A DNA stretch of 64,000 bases from Trichosphaerium sp. ATCC 40318 (GCA_038496445.1 JALMLS010000299.1:62001-126000), one strand, 5' to 3'. Shown: positions 9,243-64,000, counted from the first letter of the stretch. Numbers and translations are program-made. Notes: generated from the letters alone by a model not told the origin.

Positions 9243-11541
9243 CTACTCTCCGCCAGCGCGAAGTTTGTATTGTATACCAACCACCTCATGTGTATGGGTT
9301 TCTCGGCACTCACCAACGAATCTATCGTACTTGAAGTCATGACCAAATAAATCTCCACTCTTCACAATGTAATCTGTGTCTTCTCCCTCAAGCTCATTAC
9401 TGTATGAAGTTTGTCCCAAGACACCTGTGAAATATTCATTAAAATAGAGCATTGGGTTCTCGATAACATACCATGTGGTCGTGTGCCTTTTTTAGGGTTG
9501 TAGTTAATCTTCAAGTTAATGTGACAAGACGAGTGTTTGCTACTTGAAAAGTGCATTTGAACGCTGTATTCTGGTGTTTTGAGTATTGTCTTTCCGTTTT
9601 CTCTTAATTTTCTCTCTATTGAAAGTGATCCAGACTCAATCTTATCACCTGGTTGGACTCTATTATTGTTGAAAGTAACAATATATTCATGATCTTCTCT
9701 GTTACCTAAAAAAAGTTTAGTCAACTACGGTTAACTCGGGTTGGTTACGTACATGCATAAAGGAGCCGTTCTAAACCATTTTTACCACAGGCAAGAATAC
9801 CAAGGCTGCCAAGATAAGTCTTTGTCTTTAAAGGTCGCATATCTGCATCAAGGAATAAAGCGTTCAATTGGAACGTAGTGTCTGATACCAAACTAAATAT
9901 AAAGTTAGAATGAATTAGCAGTGGTGTAGATGACGTGCTTGAACACTCTTTTAGCAAATCCATGAAAGTCAAAGTGTCGTCCTCTAAAGCCTACAAAATG
10001 AGGATCTCCGGAAGCACTTCCCTAAGCCAGTATTAGATAATCAGGTGTTTGATTAAAAAAACGTACAACAGGTGCACCGATTTGAGGAGATACAATGAAC
10101 GCAGTACTTCTTGGAGAAGAACATCTGTCTTCTGGCATTGGGCGCCTAGAATTTTATGTTCAGATGACAAAAAGGCTTCACTAAAACGCACCCCATATTT
10201 GAATAGGATACAGTGTTCATAGCAACATCAGTAACACTACACCTGTAATTTCCATTTCCTTGTGCAGCCCACATAACTATTGAAAAATCACGTGATCAGA
10301 AAAAAAATCTCAAGTAATAATAATAAAATCACGTGATATTTTTTTTCTGATTGCAATAACTATAAAATTAGTACCTTCCCATGAGCATGTGAATGTAGTG
10401 TTAGGTTGAAGATTTACAGTGAATGTTAAGTCTCCATCTCCATTGAGGAAAGCTGCAACCTGTATTCATTTAATCAAACAAAAATATGATCATCGCTCGC
10501 ACATTGCCATCATTGCAAGAAATGCTGCCGGAGACAATAGACCCAAGGTGAGTTGATGGACATACGACTCTAACCTCAGTACTTGACGCTGGATATTGTA
10601 CAGGATTTGATACCCACACAGTTAACGGAGAAGTAGATCCTTGTTATTATCAGAGTAATTAAAAAAAAAACAACACATACCGACTGTGTTTGGCATAGCA
10701 GGGATAGAGTGCCAACTTATAGTACGTGGTGCACAACACAGGAACCGGAGAGCTACATCAAGCTGTGGTTCTACAGATGCGTCTACTATGAGCTCTACGC
10801 GATCAACTGACGAAAAAACAGACTGTGGAGACAACTAATTCTGTTAGTCCAAAACAAGAAAAATAAAATAAAAGGTATACCAAAGGTAGGCAAAGAGCCC
10901 TCCTCCCAAAGAATGCGTCGAGCACAGTTGTGTCCGATCTAACTGAAGTAGGACCGCTTGTAGCTACTATCGAAATTCTGTGCATGTTATCTGGCTCGTC
11001 TTCCAGCATGTACCAGCATCCTTAGATGCTATTTAGTTCGTTTTGTGCAGCAGTATTTATCGTCCGCTAACGCCACAAATACAAAAAAACGTACCACAGC
11101 CTTTCGCTAAGTAATCCACAGGTGGATTGATGTTCGAGTAGTCAAACCGGCAAAAACCTGTTCAAAACTTATTGTTACTAGTTATTAATGCAATACTAGC
11201 CTACCCAGAGAATCAGACGTAGTGCTACAGGTAAGAGCGTCAATTACGACGCGCGCAGTAACTTCAGCACCAATATTTGTAGATGGAAGTAATCTAAGCG
11301 TTCGGAGGGTTAAGATAAGAAGCAAATAAGTAGTTGGCGAATAAACATGTTTTTACAAAAATACGCACGTTGACGTTAACATTCTGTTTCCTAGCCATGA
11401 ACCTCCATTACCTGAAGTTACGACAGTTTCTGTGTTTGGCGCAACAACTCGCGCAATGGCAGGATCTTGTAATAGGTCTATTGAGCATGGTAATTCTTGC
11501 GCCAGCGTAGAGGAAAATAATAAGAGAACGAGGAACAGCAT
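9243..11541 (-). CDS. Secreted protein with C-terminal VWD/root-cap/ITI-HC-C-like domain
   Basis: Signal peptide MLFLVLLLFSSTLAQ; GDPHFVGFRGRHFDFHG and PHG|VLGQT motifs in the C-terminal exons. Confidence 0.7.
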
Positions 11542-14568: not shown

Positions 14569-17429
14569 ATGAGACAAGATAGTATGCTCAATATAGACGA
14601 TTTCTACAACCCTCAAAATAATATTGTACGCAAAGATACATAATTATGACGAAAACTTTCGTTTTCTCCGATATACTTCTCCACAACTAGTAAAAGTGTA
14701 TGCGAACGTACTCATGATGTTAACGTAGGAATTGGACGATCTCACTTTTGAGAAAACGGACATGACAGAAAAGGACAAGGGAGACCGCCACGCCAAGATC
14801 TTCGGCGACGCGCATATTGGTGGTATGCTATCCATAGGACGTGTATCAGCTGCTATGGGCAAAAATAACGATATGTCTGTAAGCCATGTTACAAAATTGA
14901 TCCAGAAGCGTAAACGTAGAAAACAAAGAAGGTAACAACAAACCAAGTTAAGCTTGAAGTTGTGTTAACGCTTTTTTTCTAAGGTTATTGTATCGTGGTT
15001 TGGTGGCGTTTATCGTATTTATGGCATTATTTCTCATCATAGGTAAGCTATCTTTGTAGCATACTATATTGTTCGCTGATAAATGAAGCGTTTATGCAAC
15101 GTGGTGTTGGGTTCTCTCATTGGCTTGAAGTGTCAATGAAGGATGCAATAGCAGAAGAGGAATTCTCTCCTGAAGATGCACATATTTACAAGTCGTTTCA
15201 TGATATTGGTGAAGTGGTAGGTTTAAAACCATGTCACCATAAAACAAATGTTGTAATCAAAATTATAGAGTGAGTTTTGGCAATGGATGAGTGGACCATT
15301 AATTGGTGCTCTTTCTTCTTTGAATTCGAAGGAAGAAGGCAAGTCATGGTCATCTATATATCAATAACTTTTATTGAAGCCTTTATACTTCGATATAATA
15401 GATTACTTGGTTCTGTGCGGATACGTCAATGTCGTGTACAACGTGGAACATGTGAAGTAACATCATCATTGAAGAAATTCTTTACGGATAGTCAAGTACC
15501 TCCACCACAACTTCAACGATTGTTATCTTAATGCTTACGTTAGGGGCTTATTTGTTACGGACATTGGTCTGGTTCTAAGGAAGAACGAGCACCATTTGGA
15601 CCTGTAGACGAACCTAAAAAGTACTTACCAAGTTGTTTACGTATTTTTCTAATTGTTTACTTAGGTATGTATGGCAAGAAACACCTGCACCATCATCTAT
15701 TGGAGAGCTTCTTCATGTTTACCCTGGAAACGGTTATGTCATTGACTTGGAATACAATCCAATTGTTGCCGCAGAACAAGTTCAAAAACTGCAGGTTGGT
15801 GATATTTTATTTTTGGTTGGTGTCACTCACAAACTCGTGTGTAGGAAGATGCATGGATTGATGGCGCAACTAGGTTTGTTATAGTTACGATTAACATATA
15901 CAATCCTCATACAAACTACTTTATGTCATCACTATTTGTACGGCTTTGAATACCTTGTTACTTTTTTGACTAATTTTTTTGGGTAGTCGATGGAAATACA
16001 TCCATCTGGAGCTTTGTTGACCAGACAAGAGTTCAGACCTTTTAGAGCAACTCTATATTTTACAAATTCCGACATGTTCAGGCTAGGATGTGAAATTTTA
16101 TTCGGACTTTCCTTGATTATGTGGATTGTGTACACTATCGTAGAGGTACTATAACTTATGTCAACATTTCAGAGTATAACTTGATTAGATGGTAAGAGAG
16201 CACCGTGACGAAAGAAGTAGTGTCTGGCAGTGGCTTGTATCGCCATTTTGGAATCTCCTGGCAGTAATCAACCTGGTGTTTTTCTTAACGTTATCCATAT
16301 GGTATATTGTGTTTGTTCTAGAACTCAATGACTTCCGTGGAGATATTGATGATCTCAATAGAGACTCGTATGTTTTTAAGAATTTTTACTTCACTACTGA
16401 CACGTGTGCTACAGTGCATTCACAAGAATGGAAGATCTAGGTCGAAACTGGGGTCTAATTTACAGTTTTGCATCTGTCAACTTGTTTTTGACAGTGCTGT
16501 TAATCTTCAGATACACGAGTTTGAATCCTCGATTTCAAGTTTTATGGATGACACTAATGAATGTATGTTAGATACTCAAAGTATGTATTGTAGGTAAACT
16601 CGCTAACATGTTTTAGGCTGGACCTGATTTATTCGCTTTTATGGTGTTCTTTTTTATTGTATTTATTGGATTTGTGACAACTGCGCACATGTTATTTGGA
16701 CCAGATGTCAAGGAGTATTCAACCTACGCTGCTTCCTTTATCACAGCATGGGGCTTGATGTTGGGTACGTAATATACTCCTTATATTAAGAAATGCAAGT
16801 AATTAACAACTGTGCGTAGGTCAGTTCGATTACCCACCCCTTGCTGCATCAAACAGAGTCATGGCACCACTTGTAAGTTTTTTGTTTGAAGTTGTAAACT
16901 TGTTTGTTGACACGTGATAGTTTTTTATCACATACGTAATGCTGATTGTTCTCATTCTACTAAACATGTTTCTGGCTATTATTGATAATGCCTTTGAAGC
17001 CACAAAAGAGCGTATCAACGAAAAGGTTTGCTCTTTCTTATTTACTTTTCTAACAAAAAAAAAACTAGAAAGAAGATAGTGACTCTGTGGGTGTAAGGCA
17101 AAGATTTAAAGAAGTACGCACACTGTTACTCAATAGTACCTCTTCTTACCCATGTACTCTAGTTCCTTCGGAAGATTCAAAACAAAATATGTTGCTGTTG
17201 CTGCAAGGAAGATAGAGGGTTACCTAGAACCAATAGCGCTGGTGCTGTTGAAATCGCAAAAGTCAAGAAAGACAAAGATGTTGGTTATGAAGAAGTGCTT
17301 GATTCAATTTTACGCATGGGTAAGCACGATGATCTCTTTTGTGAACTACTTGCTTACTCTGAGTTTTTTAAAGATGAACGCTTGAATAGATTGGTAAGAC
17401 CTGAAGAGAGTGACTCTGATGAAGGCTAA
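14569..17429 (+). CDS. Polycystin-2 (TRPP/PKD2)-like cation channel (start approximate)
   Basis: EFWQWMSGPL, YNRLLGSVRIRQCRV, YPGNGYVIDL, WIDGATR, GPDLFAFMVFFFIVFIGF, LLNMFLAIIDNAF. Confidence 0.88.
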
Positions 17430-17842
17430 ACCTTGTACAATATTTATCAACCTATGTAAAAATACAACTGAAGAAAAATCATATGCTATGAGGTTGCTCA
17501 AGTTACACTAGTTTCACTCTCCTTTCACTGTATACTACGTGGTGACATCTCCAAGGTGCATACGTGGTTATTGTGCTGTATCACGGTCATTAAGAGCGTT
17601 AAGTAGTCTTGAATTTGAGAAACAGCTTCTTTAGTACATATTCCTTCGTATTTACGTATTTCCCCAATGCGCGCGATTGTACTCATTTGTTCACGTAATT
17701 TTCGTCAACACTTGCCGTTCAAGCAAATCAAGGACTCGCCCAAGGGCTACAATTCAAGCATATTGGCGGAGAAAAGATTGCCCTGTGCAAATAAAATCAC
17801 AAAAGAAAACTCAAAATTTTATTGACTGTAACTTGCTACATC

Positions 17843-19323: not shown

Positions 19324-19345
19324 CTGGTTTGTATTGTATTGTATT
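19324..19345 (-). repeat. Target-site duplication copy (CTGGTTTG) and 3' pentanucleotide tail (AATAC)3
   Basis: Plus strand reads ctggttt-gtatt-gtatt-gtatt; the same ctggtttg recurs at 28777-28784. Confidence 0.75.
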
Positions 19346-19406
19346 AATGGGTAAAGGTCAAAATAATTCCAAAAGAGCGAAAAAATGCAAATATTTTATT
19401 ACGATT

Positions 19407-20112
19407 TTACAGCGGTTGATTGATTAAAATGCGATCGAATTCAGAGATTACTGGTGGAAAGACCCTCGCTTTACCGATACCGTTAAGGTACCTTGTAATG
19501 TGATTTTTGTACGATGTCTTGAACTTAGGTAGTATAAAGTGCTTACACTCGCTCAATACTGACCACTCTGGTAATGGTCCCCTTAGCGCTACTGCCTTCA
19601 TAGCGTTATCTATGATGTCTACAGAACAGCCCTTTACGAAACTAAGATCTCTTTTGAAAGAGGTTCCATTTGCGCAGTTGTATCCTTTACTTAGTTCCCA
19701 AGACACCAAGAACTCGTAATGGCCTACTGCTAATTTACCCAATCTCTCGCTGAAATAAAAGTAAATTATGTGAAATAAAGGAGCATGGGTTTGTTTACTT
19801 GAAGTTCGGTGGTATTGGTTTCACAGCCACCAACTTAATACTGCCTCTGGAGTGGCTAACGTAACCAGACAATCTGGTGACAACAGTTAAGAAACCCATT
19901 TCATCGCCAAAGTAACCAGAGCGCCCAATGCGATATTTGCCCTTCTCGTGGAGTGACTCGATAACGTACAAAACGCCGTTGTCCCATGAACCATCGGTGA
20001 TTGAAATAAAGAAGTCTTTGAAGAATATTGCAGTAGGACAGGCTTCTCGCCTAAGCATCTTAATGCATTCATCTTCGCTATCTCTCCAATGTGGTATTTT
20101 GCGTTCAGCCAT
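19407..20112 (-). CDS. LINE ORF3: two-exon 218-aa protein with T5orf172/MUG113-like (GIY-YIG) motif; exons 20112-19799 and 19749-19407
   Basis: A 49-nt GTAAAC...TTTCAG intron joins two ORF-track fragments in frame (PPNFN-ERLGKL); GVLYVIES...KYRIGRS...TRLSGY pattern; AATAAA just after the stop. Confidence 0.7.
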
Positions 20113-20388
20113 CACTTGCGGTTTCACTGGTTTGATATGTTAAAAATAATTTAATCAAGTTTCGCTTGATTGATGTTGTAAAGGTCAGATCAAGTCTTAT
20201 CTTGTGCTGTCCTCTTCTCCGAAGGCCGGTTGTCGGCTCTCACGTAAGTCACGGCGGCGATAGCCGCCGTGTATCTTCTCCGAGTTCTCAACAGAAAACT
20301 TTAACATGGAAGAAGATAGTTCGGATAATAACCCATCGTTACCCTTCAGAGCTCGCCTAGGCGGCTCCAGGGCGTTATATTAATTGTT

Positions 20389-23300
20389 TTACGTGATAGG
20401 GCTACCGGCAAATCGCCGGTAGATATCTTCCATCTCTGGGCATTCGACAAATTCAGTGTTGTAGTCTATCCACCATTGTTCGTGTAATTTGCATCTTTTT
20501 TGGTAAATACCGTGTATCATCTTGGCTAAGGCGAGATGTACTTTTTTTAGAGACTTAGTGATTGCTACTGAGTCGCAGCCTTGATCTTTCAGGCTGTTCA
20601 CCAGTTTTTTAGGAATGTAAGCTTTAGCAACCAGCTCCTTGGTTTCGAGACTAGGTGCCGTGTTGCGTCTAAAGGAGCAGATGTCATTCGCAGATGGCCA
20701 GAATCGTTTGTATTTGGCTCGTGGGAGGTGTTCTTTCATGGCTAGCTTTATTTCTTTAGCTGTATCTTGTCGATAACTTTCATATTTAGGGCAATCGGCG
20801 ATCACGTGCAGATTGGATTCTATTTCATTACAAAACATACAAACGTTGTCAGAGTATTTATCTTTATTAACTCCAGGCCAGTTTTGTATTGCCCTTTTAT
20901 GCATGATTTCACGTGTGCATAGTTTGTCGTTTCTCGCTTTGAATAAAGTGTTATTAATTTTTTTCATTGTGTAATCTGGTTTGCCGAAGTTAATTGCCGA
21001 GACGCTCATGTCGGCTTTATCCATGATTGGTCTGCGCTCGATGAGCTCTTTGTTCGCCTTTTCTTTAAAAGTTTGAGCTATGTATTTCCGTATGTTTCCT
21101 TCGATAGGTTTAAGTTTTTCGTCGTATAGTGTATAGTCTAGCATTCCGTTGAGTATTTTACCTTCAACTTCGTCAGCTTCTCTACCCAGATTGGCTAGTT
21201 TATCGGCTTCTTCGTTGCCTTCAAGTATCCACTCTATGTTTCTACCAAAGGTGTTTTTGAGTGTATTTACCTCCGCCATGAGTCTTCCCATGCGGTTAGG
21301 TTCCTTTTTGTATGCCTTGATTTTTTTATTGAAGTGGCTAGGTACTTTGTGTATAATGCAGTCACCGTTATTGTCCGCTCTATCTTTAAGAGCGTCGCGG
21401 AGTTCTTTAATGGCTATCGCATTGGGCGAGAAAGGGGAAACCGAGTCACTACATGCCATCTTAATGACATAAGTGGAATCCGTAAATAAGTACATAGGTT
21501 GATCTATTGGGACCACCTTAACAGCTACTATGGCTGCTTCTAATTCAGCTGCATCGATGTCTTGTTTGGTGACTGCTCTACATGCAAGGTTGTTAAGATT
21601 ATCTTCACCGAAGTAGACTCCAACCCCAGCGACATTACCATTTTTCTTTTGAATACGAGAGCCGTCTGTCCAGACGCAAACAAAGTCTTTATGCCAGTGC
21701 CAATCGTCGTCTACGCTACTGTTGATGGTGGATATGCTGTTATTGGAGAGAGTGGCCTTATTGAGGGCACATTTTATTGCCTTATTATTACCTTCAGTTA
21801 TGACTTTGGCTAGTGCGTGATAGGTATATTCGGTAACTGTTTTGCCAAATAACTTACATATTTCATTTCTGTCTACTAGTCTACCGTTACGTATCACATT
21901 GACTTTAGTGATGTCATCAAGAAGGCCTAACGATGTGAGTGTGTCACATTGTGTTTCGTTAAGCATAATGGGTAGTGGTGGTGTTTCAGTGACACTAGCC
22001 ACGCACGTCATGTTCATTTTTAGTAGCATTTTCTTATACATAGTAAGTCTGTCGTCATTAATATTTATTTTTATTTTCTTGGCATGATGAGTTTGTGCTG
22101 TTTGCCTAAGTCCTTTTCTGTTGATGGTTGGAAGGTAAATGTTGTCCGTCAGTCTTTGTTTAGTGGTGACTTGTGGGAGCGAGCCATTTTCTGCGTTAAG
22201 TGCAAATTTATATGTGTTGGCGACGAGTGCTATTTGGTTTGCAAGCATCGGTGGAACTACTTCCTTGCCATCCAGTTCGCGGCTAGCCCAGAGTTGGCAG
22301 TGTTTGGATCTAGAGGTCATAGGGATGGCTCTGAATAGCATCTGAACTACCGCTTTTTTGAGTTTTTTCATGATGTCTAGTGGAAAAGAGTAGAAATTCA
22401 TATGATATTTTAGAGCTTCGTTTAGTACTCTATTAATGATGGTTATTTTGCAGTCATATGGAACTGCTCTGCCTGATATGAGGTTTAATCTATATATGTA
22501 TGCAGACTTAACAGCTTGAGCGTCACGATTCCAGTCCAGTTTTATGTTGATGAAAATGCCTAAGTATTTGTAGGATTTACCAATTTCGATGCCTGGAAAC
22601 TCGACCGAGATATTATTTCTTATAAGTACCAGAGGGTCTGCTTCCTCTGAACTCATATATTTTGTTTTAGCTTGGTTGACTTTCCATCCATTGTAATCGC
22701 AAAAGTTAAGGAAGTGGTTCATGGCGTTGGTCAGATTTTCTTTGTTCTCTGCTATGAGTACAATGTCATCGCAGTATGCTAAGACTGAGATTTGTATGTT
22801 GGAGTTATTAGCGAACTGATAGCCTTGAATATTATTCGAGATGTATTTAATTATGGGGTTGAGGCATAGGACGAAGAGCATGGGTGATAATATATCTCCT
22901 TGTTTAACGCCATTGGTGATGTCAAATTGTTCTGAGAGACCGTCGATAGTGAGGATTTTGCCGCTACAGCCATTGTATAGGGCTGAGATAGCTTCAATCA
23001 TGATATTTGGAAACTTGTAGTACTTAAGCGTTTTGATCATAGACCAGTGTTCAACTGAGTCGAACGCTTTACTTATGTCAATGAATAACATTGCCAATTT
23101 TTTCTTTTCGGCAAATTGTCTCCTGTCTTCAATGACGTTTATGAGCGTAGTGATGTGTCCTACCGTGGATCGCTTTGGTCTGAATCCATTCTGTTCGTTG
23201 GCGAGGATGTTATTTCCATCCACAAACTCTAAGATTCTGTTATATAATAGTCTGGTGTATATTTTGTATTGAACTGCTAGGAGTGCTATAGGTCGGTAAT

Positions 23301-25479
23301 TTTTTGGATCTGTAGGCGAGGATCCTCTTTTATGTATAAGATATAAGTAAGAGTTTTTCCATGTGTCTGGCATGTAACCTTTTGTATAGCAGCCGTTAAA
23401 AAGGTTGAGCATAATATTAAGATATTCGTCATTGAGTTTTTTATATACCTCTGCAGGTATTCTGTCTTCGCCAGATTGTTTCCAGCTTTTGGTGGCTTCT
23501 ATTGCCTCTTTTAGTTCTTCCATTGTGAAGGTTTTGGTATCCATTTGAACTTTGGAAGTATCTATTTCTTCATTGAGCCAGTAAGGGTCTCCGGATGGTA
23601 CTGTGTCTACTTTGTTAAGTATTTTGTCCCAGGCTTTAACGAAAAGAGACATTTTTTCTTTATGATTGTTGGTCACAACACCTGAATCAGGATCTTTCAG
23701 AGGGCTATTAACCGCCGTACCTTTGCGTTGTAATAGGTTGTCGAAAAAGGCTTTAGGATTGTCATGGAACTTATCAATCAAACCGTTTATTTTCTCTTTT
23801 ATAGAATCCGCTTTGTATGCTGTTGCTCTTTGGTCTCGTTTTATTTTAATGTGTTTGATTATTAGTTTAATGTACTCTCCTAGGTCATCTCCATTACCTT
23901 TCTCTTTAATATTTTTTGTGATTTTGTCTTCGTCATGTATAACCAGTTTCTTACATTCTTTACGGATATTTATTAAAACGTTGAAGCATGATTTAACTTC
24001 CGAGGTTGACATGTCAATAGGATCTTTGGATTTGTTGATTAGTTTTTGTACTCTATGTTTAAGATTACCCCATTTTCTAAGTTCATGATCGTTGGATGTT
24101 CTGGTTTTGCGAAATTCTCTGTGTTTGGTGCCTACTAAGTCTTTACAGTTATCGTAGATTTCTTCTGTAAGGTTTTGCGCTAGATTGTCTAGACTGAGAA
24201 GTGAATCACTGTTCAGCCATCTGTTAAAGTTGCGATGTAGTTTATCGCTGATCATAGTATCATTGATAAGGCCTAATTTGTCACTTCTAGTATTAAGACT
24301 GTCTTTTGGTTGTTCTAGTTTGGTGCCTTCATCCGTATTTCCCTTCCACCACCATTCGAACTCAATAAGTATCGGATAATGGTCACTATCTGTGAACGGA
24401 TCATCATCAATAGAGAAGTTCCACACTCTAAGTTCGTCTGACTTTTTAACAAGGAAGAAGTCTAGAAGTGCCTTGCAGCTGAAGATTCTTTCCTTGTCTA
24501 TATATTTCATACTTACTCTGGTGAACATTTCTTTATTTGGGTATAGTATTCTATGAGCTGCTACTAAATCTCTCTCTTGCATGAGGTCTGAAAGCGCTTC
24601 TGATTTATGATCTGAGAATTGCATATTGTGGTTATCTGCGTACCATCTATCAGTGTCTTTATTAAGTACTGAGTTGAAATCGCCACCGATGATTACGTGT
24701 TTTTTCGTACTGTTGAATTTATTTAAATATACATTGATTATATTATTAACTTTACAGAAAAATTGATCTTGTTCGTTAGAACCACTGCAAGGGGAGTAGA
24801 TGTTGGTGATTATGATGGTCGTGTTCTCATCTCCAATTGCTATAAGTAAGATTTTTCTGGACGTGTCGTAGTATACTTCTTTGACTTTGTCTACTAATTC
24901 TTTACGGACGAAAATACTGATGCCTTCTGATTTTTTGAATACTTTGAGTTTGTCTTTTTTTATGCGTAACTTGTCAATGGCTGTCCTTTTTTCTTCTTCA
25001 GTAAGGTCTCTTTTGAGTTTGGCTATTTGTCCACGGAACCATTTTTCTCTCTTATCTTCTGTTGTGAGTAAATTGGTGTACATTTTGTAATTGTCGAGGA
25101 GCGCCGAATCAGTGTCGTGTTTTAATTCAGCTTTATTACACATCATTTCTTGTACTAGGATTACGTCCGCTTGCATTTTCCTAGCTTGTAACATGATTAA
25201 TCCTGAGCTGATAAACCATTTACCTCTGCAGTTGATTGAACAAACTTTTATACAACTCTTATCGCCGCTAATGTTAATGTGATCTGTGTTGTCCGCCCTA
25301 ATTGCGAACTCCAATTGTTTATTGGTAATTTCGTTTTTTGAAAAACCTCCGTTATTGTATCTTTTTGCTATATTACGAATTTCTACTTCTCTGTGTTCGG
25401 TACTGCGGATGCTCGGCCTCGTTCCAGAATGCCCTTTATTTCTGGAGCGAAGACCATAATTGTGTTTGCTACTTAACAT
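20389..25479 (-). CDS. LINE ORF2: apurinic endonuclease + reverse transcriptase + RNase H + CCHC zinc finger, intronless
   Basis: APE: SINCRG, ILVQE, NIYSP, GGDFN, SDHYPI. RT: NYRPIALL, QNGFR, DISKAFDSV, GVKQGDILSP, YCDD, YKYLG. RNase H: WTDGS, AAELEAA, TDSTY, KVPSH, GNEEADKLA. CMFC-x7-H-x4-C knuckle. Confidence 0.97.
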   Translation of the reverse strand: MLSSKHNYGLRSRNKGHSGTRPSIRSTEHREVEIRNIAKRYNNGGFSKNEITNKQLEFAIRADNTDHINISGDKSCIKVCSINCRGKWFISSGLIMLQARKMQADVILVQEMMCNKAELKHDTDSALLDNYKMYTNLLTTEDKREKWFRGQIAKLKRDLTEEEKRTAIDKLRIKKDKLKVFKKSEGISIFVRKELVDKVKEVYYDTSRKILLIAIGDENTTIIITNIYSPCSGSNEQDQFFCKVNNIINVYLNKFNSTKKHVIIGGDFNSVLNKDTDRWYADNHNMQFSDHKSEALSDLMQERDLVAAHRILYPNKEMFTRVSMKYIDKERIFSCKALLDFFLVKKSDELRVWNFSIDDDPFTDSDHYPILIEFEWWWKGNTDEGTKLEQPKDSLNTRSDKLGLINDTMISDKLHRNFNRWLNSDSLLSLDNLAQNLTEEIYDNCKDLVGTKHREFRKTRTSNDHELRKWGNLKHRVQKLINKSKDPIDMSTSEVKSCFNVLINIRKECKKLVIHDEDKITKNIKEKGNGDDLGEYIKLIIKHIKIKRDQRATAYKADSIKEKINGLIDKFHDNPKAFFDNLLQRKGTAVNSPLKDPDSGVVTNNHKEKMSLFVKAWDKILNKVDTVPSGDPYWLNEEIDTSKVQMDTKTFTMEELKEAIEATKSWKQSGEDRIPAEVYKKLNDEYLNIMLNLFNGCYTKGYMPDTWKNSYLYLIHKRGSSPTDPKNYRPIALLAVQYKIYTRLLYNRILEFVDGNNILANEQNGFRPKRSTVGHITTLINVIEDRRQFAEKKKLAMLFIDISKAFDSVEHWSMIKTLKYYKFPNIMIEAISALYNGCSGKILTIDGLSEQFDITNGVKQGDILSPMLFVLCLNPIIKYISNNIQGYQFANNSNIQISVLAYCDDIVLIAENKENLTNAMNHFLNFCDYNGWKVNQAKTKYMSSEEADPLVLIRNNISVEFPGIEIGKSYKYLGIFINIKLDWNRDAQAVKSAYIYRLNLISGRAVPYDCKITIINRVLNEALKYHMNFYSFPLDIMKKLKKAVVQMLFRAIPMTSRSKHCQLWASRELDGKEVVPPMLANQIALVANTYKFALNAENGSLPQVTTKQRLTDNIYLPTINRKGLRQTAQTHHAKKIKININDDRLTMYKKMLLKMNMTCVASVTETPPLPIMLNETQCDTLTSLGLLDDITKVNVIRNGRLVDRNEICKLFGKTVTEYTYHALAKVITEGNNKAIKCALNKATLSNNSISTINSSVDDDWHWHKDFVCVWTDGSRIQKKNGNVAGVGVYFGEDNLNNLACRAVTKQDIDAAELEAAIVAVKVVPIDQPMYLFTDSTYVIKMACSDSVSPFSPNAIAIKELRDALKDRADNNGDCIIHKVPSHFNKKIKAYKKEPNRMGRLMAEVNTLKNTFGRNIEWILEGNEEADKLANLGREADEVEGKILNGMLDYTLYDEKLKPIEGNIRKYIAQTFKEKANKELIERRPIMDKADMSVSAINFGKPDYTMKKINNTLFKARNDKLCTREIMHKRAIQNWPGVNKDKYSDNVCMFCNEIESNLHVIADCPKYESYRQDTAKEIKLAMKEHLPRAKYKRFWPSANDICSFRRNTAPSLETKELVAKAYIPKKLVNSLKDQGCDSVAITKSLKKVHLALAKMIHGIYQKRCKLHEQWWIDYNTEFVECPEMEDIYRRFAGSPIT

Positions 25480-28400
25480 ATTTGTATAATTTATTATTGC
25501 GGTTCAAGATAGGGCTCTCGTTTACAAGGGCTGTAAACTTACGAGCGTGTGTGTGATAGTAGTTATGATTTCGGTTTATACGCATCAAATACTTTGTACT
25601 ATGAGGATTTTGTGTATATCCAGCGATGATGCAGCATATTTTATGCGTTATGTAAAGAAAAGGCGCAAAGTTGTAACAAATAGGTTCCCAAATGGTATAG
25701 TTATCTTTGTTACGCGTAGAGAAACATATATGTGTGTTTGTTACGCGAAGGGAAAAGGAAGAGATTCTTGGATGTTTAAAAGGTTTGTTTAGTTTCATAC
25801 CAAGTATCAACGAGCGTATACTTACTAGAAAGAAGGGAAATTTGTGTGGAGAAAGTTTTCGAAGCGAGTTATAGTCATTTAATTGTTTCAACGCAGATGA
25901 ACAGTAAAAGGTATGTGGTAAAAGAATTACTAAGGAACCAAGTATTTGAGGAGCTTTAAATTTATTTTTTTTTAGAACACAGCAGAACCTTGAATACCAA
26001 TCGAGTTTGAAGACTGTAAGTAATTTATACGTCTTGTTTTGGAGCTGATAATTTGTCCAGTTTTTCTTGAGTGGCCTTGCTGAGGCCGATGTCACATTCA
26101 ACGTCTCCCAGATAGTCATCAAGAGAAGGCTTAGCGGTGATGGATTGCTTACCGGCAGTGGCTCTTGCTCTGGAGCGCGATCTAGACGATCTGGTGGCGA
26201 CTCTACAAATTCTGCCCGATCCGAGTCCAGTATTTGGGTCGATGTTTTCCTTCTCGATGATGTTTTTAATGTCTGACATTTCTTCGTCAGAGTTGGCTGT
26301 GTCAGACCAGGAGATTTCATCATCTCCGGTAACATCAATGTAAGTGGATTTTTTCTTCTCCTTCTTTTCTTTGACGGCATTAGAGGTGTTGTTTGTCGCA
26401 TTGGATGAGTTTTCAATATCAAGAGAGCCACCGTTTTTGAGAATTTCTCTAGTGACAAGTTCACGTGTATCATTGATACTAAATTAATAATGTAAGAATA
26501 CTGTGTAATATTATGTAAGTGAAAGATAAAAAATACTTGCGCTTTAAGGAGTGAGACTACGTTTCTGGATAGGCCTTGGATCATTCCTTTTACATACACA
26601 ATTTCGTTATGCATTGTGAGAAGGGCTGGGTTGTTAGGTTTTACCGTTTTCCCGTTGTTGGTGCATCTACCTTCCTTGTAGTTGAATCCATTCATTGGTT
26701 CCATAGGGAGTCTATCAAGGAGGGTTCTATTGTAATAGATTTCAGGCGAGGTGAGGTAAGTGATTTCGTTTTCGAAGGCGCTTTTGGTAAGCGTAACATA
26801 GACGCATCCGTCTATGGCGTCATCTTTTCGAGGATCCATGGCAGGAGCGAGATCTTTGGTGTCAAGCCTGTCTTTGAAGAGCTTGTGCATGTATTTAAGA
26901 CCGGTGGCAATAGGCAAACCACGAGGCATCTTAGGTACAATCAAGGTGTATTTGTGATGTGGTTTGTATGGCGTTTGGAGAAACATTGTCCAATTATCTT
27001 CGCCGAACATGTTAGTCATTCTGATGGCGTCGTTTCGAGCGTGAGCGTCAACAAAAACTGCACTACCGTATTGGTGAGTTTTGTTCCAAGAGGCTGCCAA
27101 CATTACTGAGTTGTTACGGTTTTTGCGGCGATTGGCTTTACGATTATGGGCACCAACTATGTTTGTGATAGATGGGTCGATGAGTTTGCCTATTTTTATG
27201 TGAGAATATGATATTGTATAATTGAGAATTAACGATGAATGTGTTTTAATGTGAGAGAGAAAACAGATCCAAGAGTGGGTTTTGTTGGTGTCGTGATTCA
27301 TTTTCTTTGAATAAAAAGGAGTGTTTTGGGTTTGTTTTGGGATTGAGAAGAAGAAACAAAGAAGAAATAGATGTGTATGCGTGGTAGTTTTGTTATAGTT
27401 TTTGGTAGTATTGTGAGCGATAACGATACCTCTAGTGATGGAAAGCAGCGTGGCAACTGCGCAATCAGTGGTTTTGGAGTAGAACACATGTGTTTTGGGG
27501 CGTCTTTCAAGGCGAACCGCCAGTTCGCGACAGGTAGAAGCATCTTGGAGGAATACGTAGACCATCGGCATAAAATCAGGACCCATTTTGAACTTGTTGA
27601 TTTCGATCCCCTCAGCAAGATCTTCAACCGATACCGATATACCTCTAGAGGTGACGGTATGATCGTTGACCACCACTATTAGGAGATATCCATCCCGAGT
27701 CTCAAAAGGTTCATCAAGAAAACTAATAAAGTGAGAATTATGTGGGAAGTGTCTAAAAATGAGATTCTTTTGATAATATAATAGTGAGGAATTAAAGTCG
27801 AACTGTTTGCATTCTTGAGAAACATCTGGGAGGAAGGAGGACCCGTTATCATCGTCATCGTATCGATCATCATCTCGACGACGACGTTTGTTAGGGCCTT
27901 TGCCTTTACGGTTGATTCTGGAGCTATCCAGATGAGGGATAGTTAACACTAGGCGTTGTGACATGTTTGATAGTTGTTTAATAATGGTTTTAGGGTGGGA
28001 GAGGATTAGACCTTCAAAGTTTTTTATTTCCTTTTTGATCGATTTGGAAAAAAGTTTTCTTATCTCAGTATTGTGGGTAGGTTGGTTCGCAAAACTTTTT
28101 CTGGTACTTTCTCTTGCGATATGAGACTTGGGTACTTTTGTTATTTCCCCGTATTTTTTAAAGTATTTTTTACTAATGTATTTAAATGTGAATTGGAAGT
28201 CATGTGTAAATTTTTTCGATTTTTTGTCGTTCCCTATTACGGTGGAATTGTTGAGGAGATATTGTGGAGAAATCCTCTTAAATTTGGCGTAAACGCCAAG
28301 TTTTGTTTTAAGTTTTAGTCGTGGAATTAAATTTAGGTCTAACTGTTGTGTTTTACGGCCTATATATGTGATGTGGAAGGAAAGAGGATGGTCTATTGTG

Positions 28401-28600
28401 TTATTTGGCTTTTTAAAGTAGTAGCCATTACTAAATGTTTTCCCGCCAATGTTCTTGAACATCGATAAACTCGGTCCTTGCATTGTCTGTTTGTCACATT
28501 CAGCTTTAGCTGACGTAGATAAAGTGAACTTAAGAATTGCAGCAGTTACTCCCTTCTGGGCAGATAACCTCCCATCGTAATGGGTGTATGTGTTTGTCAT
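25469..28600 (-). CDS. Stop-free long ORF of the unspliced LINE RNA (1043 aa from the first in-frame ATG), overlapping the ORF2 start by 11 nt
   Basis: ORF track 25469..28666 (GTG start); first in-frame ATG at 28600; ends AAA TAT GTT AAG TAG, which contains the ORF2 ATG in the +1 frame. Confidence 0.6.
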   Translation of the reverse strand: MTNTYTHYDGRLSAQKGVTAAILKFTLSTSAKAECDKQTMQGPSLSMFKNIGGKTFSNGYYFKKPNNTIDHPLSFHITYIGRKTQQLDLNLIPRLKLKTKLGVYAKFKRISPQYLLNNSTVIGNDKKSKKFTHDFQFTFKYISKKYFKKYGEITKVPKSHIARESTRKSFANQPTHNTEIRKLFSKSIKKEIKNFEGLILSHPKTIIKQLSNMSQRLVLTIPHLDSSRINRKGKGPNKRRRRDDDRYDDDDNGSSFLPDVSQECKQFDFNSSLLYYQKNLIFRHFPHNSHFISFLDEPFETRDGYLLIVVVNDHTVTSRGISVSVEDLAEGIEINKFKMGPDFMPMVYVFLQDASTCRELAVRLERRPKTHVFYSKTTDCAVATLLSITRGIVIAHNTTKNYNKTTTHTHLFLLCFFFSIPKQTQNTPFYSKKMNHDTNKTHSWICFLSHIKTHSSLILNYTISYSHIKIGKLIDPSITNIVGAHNRKANRRKNRNNSVMLAASWNKTHQYGSAVFVDAHARNDAIRMTNMFGEDNWTMFLQTPYKPHHKYTLIVPKMPRGLPIATGLKYMHKLFKDRLDTKDLAPAMDPRKDDAIDGCVYVTLTKSAFENEITYLTSPEIYYNRTLLDRLPMEPMNGFNYKEGRCTNNGKTVKPNNPALLTMHNEIVYVKGMIQGLSRNVVSLLKAQVFFIFHLHNITQYSYIINLVSMIHVNLSLEKFSKTVALLILKTHPMRQTTPLMPSKKRRRRKNPLTLMLPEMMKSPGLTQPTLTKKCQTLKTSSRRKTSTQILDSDRAEFVESPPDRLDRAPEQEPLPVSNPSPLSLLLMTIWETLNVTSASARPLKKNWTNYQLQNKTYKLLTVFKLDWYSRFCCVLKKNKFKAPQILGSLVILLPHTFYCSSALKQLNDYNSLRKLSPHKFPFFLVSIRSLILGMKLNKPFKHPRISSFSLRVTNTHICFSTRNKDNYTIWEPICYNFAPFLYITHKICCIIAGYTQNPHSTKYLMRINRNHNYYHTHARKFTALVNESPILNRNNKLYKYVK
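26025..27964 (-). CDS. LINE ORF1, spliced form (~520-545 aa), RRM-like domains plus coiled coil and charged tail
   Basis: Removing introns 27429-27190 (GT-AG) and 26540-26479 (GC-AG) gives a continuous protein-like sequence (ITRG-KLIDPS; SLLKA-INDTRELVTRE). RNP-like motifs YGSAVFVDAHARNDAI, YTLIVPKMP, GCVYVTL. AATAAA ~60 nt after the stop. Start codon inferred. Confidence 0.65.
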
Positions 28601-28776
28601 ACTCTGGCAAAGTTTTTTAACTATTGAATACGATAAACCATAAGGTTTATGGAGCGAACGGTACACATTTAGTGTCAGTGTGACGTAGCTAGATCTATCT
28701 TGTTATCGATAGGGGCTATGTAGAAAAGAACAAACAATTTCAGACGAGCTTTCACACTCGAATTTTGCCGTTTTTT

Positions 28777-28784
28777 CTGGTTTG
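28777..28784. repeat. Second copy of the target-site duplication CTGGTTTG
   Basis: Identical to 19324-19331; lies ~180 nt upstream of the element's first long ORF. Confidence 0.7.
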
Positions 28785-31576: not shown

Positions 31577-32955
31577 TTAGTCTACCAATCTCAAAACTTT
31601 CTCAGATAAAATCTTCATTTCTTCAGCTGTTATTCTCTGTCGTACAAAGCTTTCACCTGACCAAGGTTCCAAGGAAGCAAAACACGATGTTTTTGTTGCT
31701 TGAGGAGAATTAAGTACCAAAGTAATAGTACAACCATCAATAGCGTTCACGCTATGTAAAACGGAAGGATGCATATAATAAAGACCACCTTTCGATACTG
31801 TCGCTTGTTCTACTCTTGCTAATGATATTGTACCCAAAGGATTGATATTAAATACATTTGTACCATCCTCAGTAACAGTAGGGGAATAAACGTATTTTTG
31901 AAATGATATAACTTCAGATTCTTGTTCTTCTGGTACACAATGTAAAGGTTCTTCCCATAATTCTTGAGTGATACTACCGTGTACTATATGAGAAACAAAA
32001 TGGTTTCTATGACTATGGACTTCCTCTTGAGCTTCTGTAAATTCTTCAGGTGAAAACACGTGCATTCGAAGTTTCCATGCGGAACGTTTTCCTTTCAATA
32101 GAACTGTCTTATCAAATAAATCGTGATGGTAAGAGTTTCCGACACATTCGTCAAAATGAGGTTGAGATGCCATTAATCTGGATAGTAGTGTCTTGAAATG
32201 AGAGCCAAGGCCATATACTAGCGAATCAACAGAAGTAGCATCAATCACGTGAGGTTGACAAGCAGAACGCTCAATGACTCCTTCAATCAAGTCTCGAATT
32301 TGCTCTATTGAATCGCCTCCTTCACAATTCGTAAAAATATCACCCACGTGTGCTACATAGCGACTTCGTGCTTTCTCATCGCATATTGGGAATAGTTTTT
32401 GCATGTGTGGAATACCTAAAGGGGTTAGAAACACGAATTACAAAGAGGATTTTTGACGACAAGAAAGGAAAAAAAGGTTGTACGTGTTTCCCATGCATTT
32501 TGTTCTCCTTTCTTTATTATCAATTCACAGTCACTGGAAGTTATAGGACGTCCTTTCATTACTCTGCATTCAGCCTTGACTGTTTTACGCAGTTCCAAAA
32601 ATTGTTGCTTAGATTCTCTGTCTGCGTCGCGCATCAGACGAAGAGTTTCGTAAAGTGTATCAAGTTTTGCTTTTTTCTCAGGATTTCGCCTGTCTCCTCG
32701 CATGGAATTTCTTACGGTCTTTATTTCTGCTCTTATGGCCCTCATTCTACTCAATGCTGCTTGTCTTTTCGTTTTCCCGATGCGTCTAAGCTCTTGCGAA
32801 AACACGGGATAAACAATGCGTTTAAACCCTCTCTTCGCAGGTGGGGGTTCCTCATCATCGTTTAAGGGTTGCTCTGTGGTTTTAGACGTATTTGATGTAT
32901 CTACACCTCCATTTAAAGGAACTACTCGCCTATATGGTTGACCGCGTTCTGCCAT
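31577..32955 (-). CDS. Two-exon protein: basic helical N-terminus plus cupin (cysteine-dioxygenase-like) domain
   Basis: GTACAA...TTTAG intron (~32421-32483) joins the two ORFs in frame (WETR-IPHMQK); cupin ligands HSHRNHFVSHIVHG and YYMHPSVLHSV. Confidence 0.72.
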
Positions 32956-33813: not shown

Positions 33814-36460
33814 ATGCATCAGCTCCACTCTGCATTACTGATCATACTTTGTAGTGCAATTTATACAGCCCTTTGTGGATTTTCACAAGATGTACGGCCG
33901 TATCAAGTAGTTTTGAGCTTACGTATCTATGAGTAGGTTATTCTTAATGAAATAGGCCTTGACAACGGAGAAGGGCCCGAATACGTAGAGCTTAAGAATC
34001 TTAGAGCAAGCGAAAGCACAATTACTGGCTGGACAGTAAAAATAATTAATCATGGCTGTTCTGGAACTATTACGCACCAATACACGTTCCCAGACTCAAC
34101 AGGTACGTTTTGTTTAATTTCACAAAAACACGTCTAATTCCTATGTAGTTGTTCCAGCTGGAGGCCATATCTTATATGTAGACAACGAGAATCCCAACTG
34201 TATCCCATCGGTTGGATGCAATGTAATCACTGCATCGTCAAATATAGTTAATTCTTTGACATCAGAAGACGATGTAGAAATTGTGTTGCTAGACGATACA
34301 GACACTTGCATGGACTACGTGGCAATAGGCGCTACTAATGACAATCAAGGTAAGCACAATATAGTAAACACTTTCTGTGTAACCTTTGTCGCTAGGGGGA
34401 TGCTTGTGGAATACCAACTTATTACAAGCAAGCGACTACGGCATTATCCAAAGAGCTACTAGTATTCCTTCCGCAAATTGCTACGATTGGGTCGCAGCTT
34501 CAACCACAACCCTTTGTATGGATGGAGTAGGGTCACCACTTATGGATTGTAACGGAACAATCAATGTGTGCCCTCCTACTGCACCTCCTACGACCTTACC
34601 TCCAACGACGCTCCCTCCAACAACACTACCTCCAACGACGCTTCCTCCAACAACACTACCTCCAACAACGCTCCCTCCAACAACGCTCCCTCCAACAACA
34701 CTACCTCCAACAACACTACCTCCAACGACGCTTCCTCCAACAACGCTACCTCCAACAACACTACCTCCAACAACACTACCTCCAACTACTGAAGCGCCAA
34801 GTACTGAAGCGCCAAGTACTGAAGCACCATCTACTGAAGCACCAACTACTGAAGCACCAAGTACTGAAGCGCCAAGTACTGAAGCACCATCTACTGAAGC
34901 ACCAACTACTGAAGCGCCAAGTACTGAAGCGCCAAGTACTGAAGCACCATCTACTGAAGCACCAAGTACTGAAGCACCAAGTACTGAAGCACCATCTACT
35001 GAAGCACCAACTACTGAAGCGCCAAGTACTGAAGCACCATCTACTGAAGCACCAACTACTGAAGCGCCAAGTACTGAAGCACCATCTACTGAAGCACCAA
35101 CTACTGAAGCGCCAACTACTGAAGCACCAAGTACTGAAGAACCAAGTACCGAAGCGCCAAGTACTGAAGCGCCAAGTACTGAAGCGCCAAGTACTGAAGC
35201 GCCAAGTACTGAAGCTCCAAGTACTGGAGAACCAACTACTGAAGCACCATCTGACGGAACAAAAGCTCCCACCACTGTTGCACCATCCAGAGTTGAGACG
35301 CCTACTACTAAAGCGCCAACTGCTGCTCCACCAACGTTTCCAATTACTATTTTGACATCAGCGCCTACAACTAGACCTCCAACCACAGAAGCACCTACTG
35401 ATAGAATTGAGCCTACTACTGTAGTACCAACACCATTCGTATTTCCAAAAGTAAGATACTATTCAAAACAAGATTAAAGGCTAACGTGTATCTTAGATAG
35501 AACCACGTCTTGACTGCGTAAGAGATAATCTAGATGGAACATTCACTGCGTTCCTTGGTTGGAATCGCGATGTTCCTCCAGAAACTCTAACAATCCCTGT
35601 TGGAGACAACAACTTCGTTTCTCCTGAACCAGCATCAGGTTTTGGAGATCAACCTACTGAATTTGGTGGTACTACTCAATTCTATCCAGTAGTATCATAC
35701 GCACTGATATTCAGTGGTGAAACAACAACATGGACCCTAGGCGTACGCATTTCTTTTTTAGAATATTCACTTTGTTTTGATGTATAACTTTACTTTAGCT
35801 CGGTGTTGTAAGCTTCAGTGGAGACGAGACTGATCTACGTTGTAAAGACGATGCAATTGGTATTAATTGGGTTATTCCAAGTCCATTCCCTACAAGTGAT
35901 ACCTTGTTGGATCAAGTTATAGCAATAATTGTTAAAAACATTAACTTTGCTGGAACTTCAGCAACATACACTCAAAGCGCTGGAACAACTGCAAGTCAAG
36001 CAACACTACTCGAAATGACAATCACATCTAGTGGTACGTTATTGCAAACACTTTCTTTTTTTTGTGTCTATGTACTCACTCTTTTCTACGCAGAATCTGG
36101 TATCGCTGAAGCTGTAGGAGCGTTCATGAGCGATGAAGCTCGTGTTGAACAAACGAGAGTGGAAATAGCAGCTTTATTTTCTACAACTGTTGACGTACGC
36201 ATTGATATTGTTTTTCCGTTGTTTAGACGCTAACATGTTTTTTTAGACTATTCCAATTGTAGCAAAGCCTACAACCGTTAAGCCTAGTACAGCACGTACA
36301 AATACTGGTTTAACTTCATCTAGCAGTAAAAAGGGATGGACTACTGCACTTTTCGGTACGCTTGCGACTATTGTCTGAAAAAGTGCTTCTTGGGAGCTTT
36401 CAGGTTTACTAATGTTGGATAGGTGCTTTGGTTTTGTTTCTTGCTATCGTAACAATGTAA
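33814..36460 (+). CDS. Cell-surface mucin-like protein: signal peptide, lamin-tail-like domain, Pro/Thr repeats, bacterial-type beta module, hydrophobic C-terminus
   Basis: MHQLHSALLIILCSAI signal; VILNEI...PEYVELKN...ITGWTV (LTD pattern); PPTTL/PSTEA repeats; terminal ALVLFLAIVTM. Confidence 0.8.
34585..35250 (+). repeat. Coding 15-bp tandem repeats: ~14x PPTTL then ~30x P(S/T)TEA
   Basis: cctccaacaacacta and ccaagtactgaagcg units with synonymous variation. Confidence 0.95.
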
Positions 36461-36835: not shown

Positions 36836-37924
36836 ATGTTTTGCAAGGTACGTACAGACAAATATTAACTTATTATATACCTATTGGTGTATATAATTAC
36901 TTCTAAAACAAACTACAAGGTTGTATTGTTTTGTGGTTTGTTGTGTGCTCTTGCATTAGCTCAAGAATGCACCATCGCTGAAGTTAAACAATTTGGAGGC
37001 AACTTCGCACCGAGGAATTGGGCATTTTGTGCTGGGCAATTACTAGGTATGTCATTGCTGTTGGTTGGCGATTAGGAATCTAAATTATTCTTTACGTTAG
37101 CGATAAGTTCGAACCAAGCTCTGTTTGCCCTTCTGGGTACCACATACGGTGGGGATGGCCGAACTACATTTGCGTACGTAGTTGATTACGTTTGCATAGC
37201 ACAAGTTTTAAATAGAGTTATAGGCTTCCTGATATGCGTGGACGCTCTCCAATGGGCGCTGGTACAGGTCCAGGTACGTACTGCTCTGTTTTTACTCAGG
37301 TTTTGGGTGTTTTGTCGAATAACGTCGTATAGGTCTTACCCCAAGGACACTGGGTCAAAAAATTGGTTCTGAAGATGCTCCTCTGCCTGCCCATGGGCAC
37401 AGTATTAACTTGGGTGCTGCAACTGTTGCGACTACCACACAACTTTCTGGAAGCCCAGGTTTATCCGGAATTAGCGTCTCTTCCGCGTCACAAACAGTAG
37501 AATTTCAGGCGTCCACTACTACTTCAAGAAAGGAGGCGCCAGTTCCTCCACCATGTAGTGCAACACCTTTGCAAAACATGCTAAGAGTTGCAAACTCTTG
37601 TCAAGAATTAGTGGACAATTGCCCTATAGCAATTGTGAATGCTACAGATATAGGAACAGCATCTAATACTATAGATACAACTGGATTTGGAGTTGACGCT
37701 TCCAACATTGCTGTAGAAGGTAAACAACATTTTTGACCTATTTTCTATTCTCTTTTTTTTTTGTATTGCGTTGTCTAACCACACTGCTAGTTATTGCAAC
37801 TACAACGGCTACACTTTCAAGTGGTTCAGTATCATCAACAACTCCTGGTGCTACAAACGTACACCCTGTCTTAGCAACAAACTATATCATCTGCTTGCAG
37901 GGAGTTTTCCCTTCACGTAATTAA
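36836..37924 (+). CDS. Phage tail-collar / microcystin-dependent protein (MdpB)-like protein with signal peptide and 5 introns
   Basis: Spliced: IAEVKQFGGNFAPRNWAFCAGQLLAISSNQALFALLGTTYGGDGRTTFALPDMRGRSPMGAGTGPGLTPRTLGQKIG...LPAHGH...HPVLATNYIICLQGVFPSRN. Confidence 0.9.
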
Positions 37925-55110: not shown

Positions 55111-55585
55111 GCGTGGTGTAGTCTGTTTGACCGTTGAAGTGTCAATTAAGTTGAGTGGAGCTTATTTCTCCTCAAGCTATTTTCTGGGACTTACATTCTG
55201 TAACAACAAGACTATTGGGCCTAACGCAATACGTGAAGTTATAATTAACACTGACTTCTGCCGCCTAAAATAAAAACGCAGACCTTTCAATTATTCCGTG
55301 TATCGAACGATGCAATAGTTGGCACTCTTGACAAGGAATTTGATAAATAGCCAATAGTACCAAAACATTATTACACTTGTTCAACCTTATTTTTTGTAGT
55401 GTCAGATAGCCTCCATGAGTCCAACAAGCGCATGAAGCTAAGCAAAATGCTGGGCGTTACGCCAGATCTGGATCAGGTTCGTACTTGCGTATATTCGCCT
55501 AATAATATCTAATAACGCCCCAAAGCACTTCGAGGTGAACAAAGAACAATTACAATTCTGGTTTGGCAATACAGATACACGCCAT

Positions 55586-63835: not shown

Positions 63836-64000
63836 TATAAAACGGCGTTAATCATTCACCACATACGCAGTGTTATGTGAACGAACCTGCTTCGCTATCT
63901 GGAACGTAAGTTTTCGGATCTGTGCCGAAATTTAGAGCCTAAACTTTTTGTTTAATGTACAATGTCGAGAAACACTATTGCGCACTGTCATTTCTATCGT

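Follow-up and report, generated by a model that had tools for sequence, protein, structure and literature searches.

How can a retrotransposon keep introns when copying through RNA is expected to purge them? The question is raised by a retrotransposon of the non-LTR type (LTR, long terminal repeat) in Trichosphaerium sp. ATCC 40318, which lies in a stretch of 64,000 nucleotides (GCA_038496445.1, JALMLS010000299.1:62001-126000) that was analysed as a whole and is called the window here. The element runs from 28776 to 19331 on the minus strand. From its sequence it is an intact long interspersed nuclear element (LINE) with an apurinic/apyrimidinic (AP) endonuclease (APE), a reverse transcriptase (RT) and an RNase H, in which three spliceosomal introns are likely to interrupt the first open reading frame (ORF1). 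The answer proposed here is that splicing acts as a switch: spliced RNA would give the ORF1 protein (ORF1p), and only RNA that keeps a 62-nt intron, i2, would give the ORF2 protein (ORF2p) and be copied. This reading is given a probability of about 0.6, and it depends on the following features, in which 3n denotes a length that is a multiple of three.

25469-28702, minus strand: frame without stops in unspliced RNA, 1077 codons long (1043 aa when begun at the AUG at 28600), which passes through the leader and reaches just beyond the ORF2 start
27965-28600, minus strand: leader, 212 codons; 0 stops in the long frame, 14 and 20 in the other two; weak coding signature
27804-27964, minus strand: ORF1 exon 1, with the likely ORF1p start AUG at 27964; a basic and then an acidic stretch
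27723-27803, minus strand: predicted intron i0, 81 nt, GTTCGA..TAG; 3n and without stops; the GT donor is weak and the acceptor less secure, with a rival at 27753
27430-27722, minus strand: ORF1 exon 2, RRM-like domain, spanned by the homology to the protein P0121
27190-27429, minus strand: predicted intron i1, 240 nt, GTATCG..TAG; 3n, stop-free; missing from P0121
26541-27189, minus strand: ORF1 exon 3, a further RRM-like region and the beginning of a helical segment
26479-26540, minus strand: predicted intron i2, 62 nt, GCAAGT..TAG (GC-AG); frame-switching
26025-26478, minus strand: ORF1 exon 4, 151 codons, stop at 26027-26025; the +1 frame is stop-free too
25480-26024, minus strand: spacer, 545 nt; stop-free in the long frame, compared to 16 and 14 stops in the other two; no coding signature
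20389-25479, minus strand: ORF2, 1696 aa; AP endonuclease, RT, RNase H (RNase H1-like) and CCHC; no supported intron
19750-19798, minus strand: predicted intron i3, 49 nt, GTAAAC..CAG (GT-AG), in ORF3; G-poor, ACATAA at -22

The organization is that of an APE-type LINE, with an AP endonuclease followed by a non-LTR RT in ORF2 and an RNA-binding-type (RRM-like) ORF1 upstream. No long repeats, including long terminal repeats, were found in the element, which has a 3' tail and a likely target site duplication (TSD), an 8-bp duplication that is statistically modest and has a rival 3' end. The intact ORF2 reported in an earlier note on this DNA was borne out by the 1696-aa frame, which matches the Pfam families RVT_1 (3e-38), Exo_endo_phos (2e-9) and RNase_H (4.5e-10) and has the catalytic motifs and the CCHC finger in place. 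Among solved structures, the family profile is matched best by L1 ORF2p. For the RNase H, a comparison confined to the eukaryotic type gave a match to human RNase H1. RNA folding at the ORF2 start revealed nothing notable (z about -1).

For the introns, a gene model was trained on the window itself minus the element, which was held out, and minus two repeat-rich stretches. The window is compact, intron-dense eukaryotic DNA, for which this self-trained model gives 18 genes with 176 introns and 26.5 kb of coding sequence; the predicted host introns have a median length of 50.5 nt, the longest has 186 nt, and GC donors are present in 7 of the 176. On the held-out element the model predicted seven introns, and i1, i2 (including the GC donor) and i3 were recovered exactly, with the ends that the earlier note had given (27429-27190, 26540-26479 and 19798-19750). 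The possible fourth intron of that note, i0 (27803-27723), also has the ends described and shares its donor with the model, which however prefers another acceptor. An alternative GT at 26536 was tried with the i2 acceptor and runs into a stop.

The four segments have the GT/GC-AG ends of U2-type introns and a host-like size, save for the 240-nt i1, which exceeds all 176 predicted host introns in length. They contain 5-6% G, compared to 18-24% in the flanking coding parts, and are more G-poor than 96-100% of the host introns, i3 more so than all of them. The word ACATAA is present in all four segments versus 6/176 host introns, and four of the element's eight copies fall within these 432 nt. 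The donors are weak, with i0 to i3 outscoring 5, 14, 5 and 46 of the 176 host donors (leave-one-gene-out scoring), and the acceptors are ordinary. After removal of the segments, uninterrupted frames of 518 aa (ORF1) and 219 aa (ORF3) are obtained. The four segments are likely to be spliceosomal introns, the splicing of which we infer from these features.

Among 1.84 billion representative proteins, the only homolog identified for ORF1 was P0121 (E 8e-7; core only), which is 22-25% identical to the element; a search with a two-sequence profile returned P0121 again and nothing further, and an Atlas search with ORF1 gave no usable match. P0121 lacks both the 240-nt (i1) and the 81-nt (i0) segment. 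With spliced ORF1 it gives a single continuous alignment (78.6 bits, E 2e-19), and with the unspliced frame two separate ones (49.3 and 38.9) that flank i1. When the in-frame donor/acceptor pairs were compared by their match to P0121, the i1 boundaries listed above were the best of 28 (score 203, compared to 124 without splicing and to 54 for the highest of 300 shuffles), and those of i0 the second of 18 (203 versus 205; unspliced 193).

The layout of P0121 is also like that of the element, with a 258-aa low-complexity leader, an RRM core, a hydrophobic stretch at the place of i2 and an off-frame tail. The hydrophobic stretch has 20 residues and lies at the exact i2 position; it would correspond to a 62-nt phase-2 intron, with flanks compatible with GTATGT and CAG. 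In the tail, the residues D/E/G/A/V account for 0.09 versus 0.27 in the core, an off-frame composition. The likely ORF1p start at 27964 was chosen from the coding signature and from the layout of P0121. A two-sequence AlphaFold model was obtained for the unspliced region; its overall confidence is low (36.9), and in it exon 2 is RRM-like and i1 is unstructured, with a predicted local distance difference test (pLDDT) value of ~20. The exon 2 model (pLDDT 55-76) matches RRM structures with Foldseek E-values of 5e-3 to 2e-2, none under 1e-3, and a weak RRM_1 match in P0121 falls below the cut-off. A CCHC knuckle was not found in spliced ORF1. At residues ~306-321 of P0121, just upstream of the i0 position, another hydrophobic stretch is located between two glycines; it would represent an in-frame intron of 45 nt that is specific to that element.

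Beyond the proposal of the earlier note, the open frame of 1077 codons gives a mechanism for the copying of unspliced RNA. This frame crosses the leader, all of i0 to i2, exon 4 in its +1 frame and the spacer, the chance of which is about 1e-18, and it is closed by a TAG (25471-25469) that starts 8 nt beyond the ORF2 AUG. The spliced ORF1 frame stops 545 nt before ORF2, with five other AUGs in between. In shuffled sequences, a mean of 12.0 stops was found for the leader (0 in 212 codons) and of 11.2 for the spacer (0 in 184 codons), and each was open in 0/3000 shuffles; the +1 frame of exon 4 was open in 1/20000 synonymous resamplings (mean 8.4 stops). The stop-freedom of i0 to i2 taken alone is weak (P 0.35, 0.04 and 0.35), and 12 of the 176 host introns are both 3n and stop-free; for all six non-coding segments to be open in the long frame, the joint probability is 1e-13.6. 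No codon-position signature was seen in i1 or the spacer, and exon 4 shows its coding signature in the spliced and not in the long frame (first-position G 0.35 versus 0.15), so that the long frame stays open although it does not resemble protein. A 2A-like motif was sought in the long frames and was not found, and for the leader and tail of the long frame no homolog was identified in the protein set searched with ORF1.

According to the splicing switch, host spliceosomes would remove i0 to i2 from part of the RNA, resulting in an excess of the 518-aa RRM-type ORF1p. On unspliced RNA, ribosomes would translate the long, largely junk frame and then reinitiate at ORF2. ORF2p would bind the RNA that made it, a cis preference known for L1 (PMC11662928), so that intron-containing RNA would be copied, with ORF1p acting in trans. 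With ORF2p made from i2-retaining RNA only, cis preference implies that the copied RNA would keep i2. Avoidance of stops may also protect the RNA from nonsense-mediated decay (NMD). This logic enforces the frame-switching intron only; the 3n introns i0 and i1 are expected to be labile, which fits their absence from P0121. The mobilisation of unspliced RNA and a spliced ORF1 message, both claimed in the earlier note, are well supported, if indirectly, by the host model, the contiguity of P0121, the common position of the frame switch and the weak donors.

An RT protein search gave 271 matches, the best of them 32% identical, and the best 120 of the 271 were analysed as relatives. Among these 120, 15 contain an RNase H; six of the latter each consist of one frame (2167-2598 aa) with 690-1030 residues before the endonuclease. 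In these six relatives, where the long frame is fused to ORF2, ribosomes would read straight on. Five of the six have intron-like or off-frame stretches. P0016, P0019 and P0034 contain 6, 6 and 8 translated-intron-like segments before the endonuclease and 0, 4 and 0 after it, and one glycine-bounded segment of this kind is present in two of the three and lacking at the aligned place in the third. These three form the sister group of the element, weakly supported in a quick tree with a value of 84 in the Shimodaira-Hasegawa-like approximate likelihood ratio test (SH-aLRT). P0001 and P0006 have long stretches of off-frame make-up. It is conceivable, at somewhat less than even odds, that a whole group of RNase H-bearing protist LINEs runs the splicing switch, with stop-free introns, leader and spacer, ORF1p and ORF2p from mutually exclusive RNAs, and an intron inherited via cis preference. 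In such a group, further ORF1 introns would be gained or lost, an extra spliced gene may be carried, and intron-bearing sequence could be moved around genomes.

Several points weigh against the splicing switch. Three of the seven introns predicted by the host model have no other support, one of them inside ORF2, and by splice-site words alone the proposed sites rank 29th-144th among 725 donor-like sites and 8th-49th among 563 AG sites. The scheme leaves the persistence of i0, i1 and i3 unexplained unless the copied RNA is wholly or largely unspliced. Reinitiation is described as usually inefficient after long ORFs (PMC3894237), and the upstream ORF has 1043 codons here; moreover, the ORF2 start shows an 8-nt overlap, unlike the UAAUG of SART1. 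The relatives are known as proteins only, with introns deduced from residue make-up, and the search favours long called ORFs. One of the six fused relatives, P0005, has neither intron-like segments nor off-frame stretches, and ORF1 similarity was not detectable in any analysed relative other than P0121.

Some of these points favour a different explanation, which also has real introns and the copying of unspliced RNA, but in which the frame is open for NMD avoidance or for a job of the 1043-aa product itself, ORF2 starts otherwise, and the introns are kept by something other than cis preference, for example by export before splicing. Translation does not enforce the retention of the 3n introns i0 and i1 or of i3, reinitiation after long ORFs is poor (PMC3894237), and the first ~60 leader codons are somewhat protein-like. 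This explanation is nevertheless regarded as unlikely, given that the stop of the frame lies 8 nt past the ORF2 AUG and not somewhere in the 545-nt spacer, that it is fused to ORF2 in six relatives, and that leader and tail are without homolog in 1.84 billion proteins.

A model with no ORF1 splicing, in which ORF1p is the 1043-aa product, low-complexity inserts included, and the 151-codon overlap stays unused or is reached by ribosomal frameshifting, takes up the weak donors and the readability of all three segments in frame. It is considered improbable, since the GT/GC-AG ends coincide exactly with the breaks in the P0121 homology, an unstructured insert of 80 residues would break up the RRM-like region, the exon 4 signature sits in the spliced frame, and ACATAA is so unevenly distributed between the four segments and the host introns. 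That the copy is immobile or domesticated and gained its introns in DNA after insertion, as a single copy seen in an intron-dense host (176 introns in 26.5 kb) might suggest, is very improbable in view of a 5.1-kb ORF2 without supported intron where host density predicts about 34, an intact tail and duplicated word, introns that are stop-free in one frame, and an i2 position common to a homolog of 22-25% identity.

The RT trees were computed without the plant and oomycete RNase H L1s and without labelled Proto1, I-group and Tad1 references. In a quick tree, seven L1-type sequences form a branch (SH-aLRT 96) that excludes the element; one of them, P0099, reaches 637 bits to human L1. The RNase H-bearing relatives group loosely with the element outside this branch, with weak support in quick trees. 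On the sequences sampled, the element is an APE LINE and not an L1. The RNase H after the RT in ORF2 is a trait of Proto1; because RNase H also occurs in the I group and in some L1 elements, it is not diagnostic for Proto1. The possession of an APE and a LINE-type RT places the element outside the Penelope-like elements. A scan of metagenome DNA identified 80 loci of distant LINEs, 79 without RNase H and one possibly with it, seven of the loci having been tested for RNase H; scans elsewhere gave one further distant LINE locus in a viral collection and one in a genome collection, and two more DNA scans yielded no locus. LINE-type RTs were also encountered on records labelled as bacterial metagenome-assembled genomes (L082, P0020 and P0114), likely by eukaryotic contamination of the bins.

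The earlier note had compared the scheme to a retrovirus-like strategy. This was not retained, since plant Ty1/Copia, with spliced Gag and unspliced Gag-Pol, is closer than the retroviral env message. For the Copia element EVD, alternative splicing was reported to give a short message from which the structural RNA-binding protein is made in excess, and the unspliced RNA serves as enzyme source and template (PMC5580714). The division proposed here is the same, with excess structural protein from the spliced message, and enzyme and template from unspliced RNA. However, Copia is an LTR element the intron of which covers real protease coding sequence, whereas the present element is a non-LTR element with several host-style, non-coding-like introns within ORF1 that are kept stop-free. 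In Penelope-like elements, the best-known case of retroelements that likewise keep spliceosomal introns, this retention was called highly unusual and of unknown significance (PMC8557442). They have another RT class, a GIY-YIG nuclease, terminal repeats and introns mostly in the 5' untranslated region (UTR), and an open-frame device is not described for them in the portion of PMC8557442 drawn on here.

RNase H-bearing APE LINEs include Proto1, plant and oomycete L1 and the I group (PMC4640811). The element shares with them an RRM-like ORF1, an ORF2 with the order APE-RT-RNase H-CCHC, a short TSD and a tandem tail, and differs in the ORF1 introns, the long stop-free frame and a possible third ORF. 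In SART1, ORF1 and ORF2 are linked by stop-start coupling, and in the ORF2 translation of SART1 and L1, as here, the upstream frame ends at the ORF2 start (PMC3894237); unlike in these systems, the coupled frame of the element exists in unspliced RNA only and is mostly not ORF1 protein. LINE RNA can also be spliced in human L1, where the resulting SpIREs are dead-end copies and splicing is not needed for ORF1p (PMC5860796), and in TART, where the introns are in antisense RNA (PMC1636488). An APE LINE with an intron-split ORF1 or a stop-free unspliced frame was not found in the literature searched, which left Repbase Reports and most subscription journals outside its scope, so that a prior note is possible.

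If the splicing switch is true, it offers a testable answer to the survival of an intron in a LINE, namely enzyme from unspliced RNA only combined with cis preference. It would also suggest how LINEs set the ratio of ORF1p to ORF2p and start ORF2, a solution that plant Copia would have reached independently. Gene callers misread such elements as proteins of 900-2600 aa with junk segments, which may explain why the design has been overlooked.

The remaining parts of the element concern ORF3 and the two ends:

20180-20400, minus strand: RNA downstream of the ORF2 stop, strongly folded into multiple hairpins; z -5.7, 0/200 shuffles; no Rfam family
20127-20134, minus strand: rival copy of CAAACCAG, 15 nt upstream of the ORF3 AUG; a rival 3' end or a relic of 3' transduction
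19799-20112, minus strand: ORF3 exon 1; the unspliced frame stops within the intron; no homolog found
19407-19749, minus strand: ORF3 exon 2; spliced product 219 aa
19332-19406, minus strand: 3' UTR, ending in the tandem tail (AATAC)3
19324-19331, minus strand: 3' copy of CAAACCAG, directly after the tail and 117 nt beyond the stop of a host epimerase-like gene
28601-28776, minus strand: 5' UTR, with a 15-codon upstream ORF (AUGs at 28668 and 28641, stop at 28623)
28777-28784, minus strand: 5' copy of the likely TSD CAAACCAG, 64 nt from the predicted start of a host gene (28849, plus strand)

That the element is bounded by a TSD, as stated earlier, holds in so far as the 8-bp CAAACCAG is present at both ends. 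The word is not rare, with 7 occurrences in the window versus 2.8 expected, and the end regions contain four 8-bp pairings in all, three besides CAAACCAG at 28777/19324, one of the three being with the same word at 20127-20134. The 5' end is therefore likely right and the 3' end has a rival. The tandem tail occurs at the 19331 end only. A weak resemblance was seen between 28776-28754, after CAAACCAG at the 5' end, and 20134-20113, before ORF3, which could mark two transcription starts.

We lean towards ORF3 being a gene of the element. Its intron i3 resembles i0 to i2 in being G-poor and in containing ACATAA, and the protein had no match in Pfam, PHROGs or the protein collection (phage records reached E 5-7 only). 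A structure model of exon 1 was too poor to be used, with a pLDDT of 37. The codon usage of ORF3 (-0.046 per codon) is within the host range (-0.143 to -0.030), compared to +0.10 for ORF1, 7/52 host windows scoring element-like. This codon usage and the duplicated 8-mer 15 nt before the start mean that ORF3 may be a host or transduced gene, so that the ORF3 subgenomic message of the earlier note is favoured by an element-like intron and disfavoured by these two features.

The alternative, which is compatible with the splicing switch and held to be quite plausible at less than even odds, is that ORF3 is a host gene beside the insertion, the element ending at 20135, or a 3'-transduced passenger that retains its intron. 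CAAACCAG lies at the right place for this, a folded RNA typical of LINE 3' ends precedes ORF3, codon usage is unlike that of ORF1, and with the site empty, two head-to-head genes would lie ~86 nt apart, near the 118-129 nt of the host. On the other side, the tail is found only at the 19331 end, where the empty site of 189 nt is within the host range, i3 is more G-poor than every host intron and has the ACATAA common to i0 to i2, and no cellular homolog was found.

A reading of ORF3 as a GIY-YIG nuclease, made by eye and from one Atlas match (0.83), was not supported: with home-built profiles from 24 T5orf172 and 32 GIY-YIG domains it scored 2.0 and -1.4 bits, less than the highest value among 500 shuffles. 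Position 20127 was rejected as the splice acceptor of a long-range ORF3 message because of its poor score (3rd percentile of the host). No Rfam family or tRNA was identified in the element.

The element is flanked by two plus-strand genes, an epimerase-like one that ends at 19206 and another that starts at 28849. Elsewhere in the window, the predicted gene at 36836-37924 (plus strand) has six introns and an N-terminal part that we take to resemble bacterial phage tail-collar domain proteins; it is possibly an old transfer from bacteria. The 1.4-kb gene at 31577-32955 (minus strand), with what are presumably histidine-rich cupin-like motifs, has a single predicted intron despite the intron-dense genome and is possibly a recent acquisition. 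A large gene with 33 introns at 55447-62000 (plus strand) presumably codes for a soluble adenylate/guanylate cyclase with an ATPase/TPR tail. At ~14800-17430 (plus strand), an intron-rich gene that we take by eye to be a polycystin-2/TRP-like channel was missed by the self-trained model; it has a probable GCAAGT donor near 15340. A palindromic word centred on CACGTG recurs in intergenic DNA at 10280-10351, 52816-52840 and 61363-61387 and is a candidate promoter element. Two low-complexity repeat genes, at 34383-35477 and 62717-63847, contain a 15-nt PTT/PST mucin-like array and a P/G/Q-rich array.

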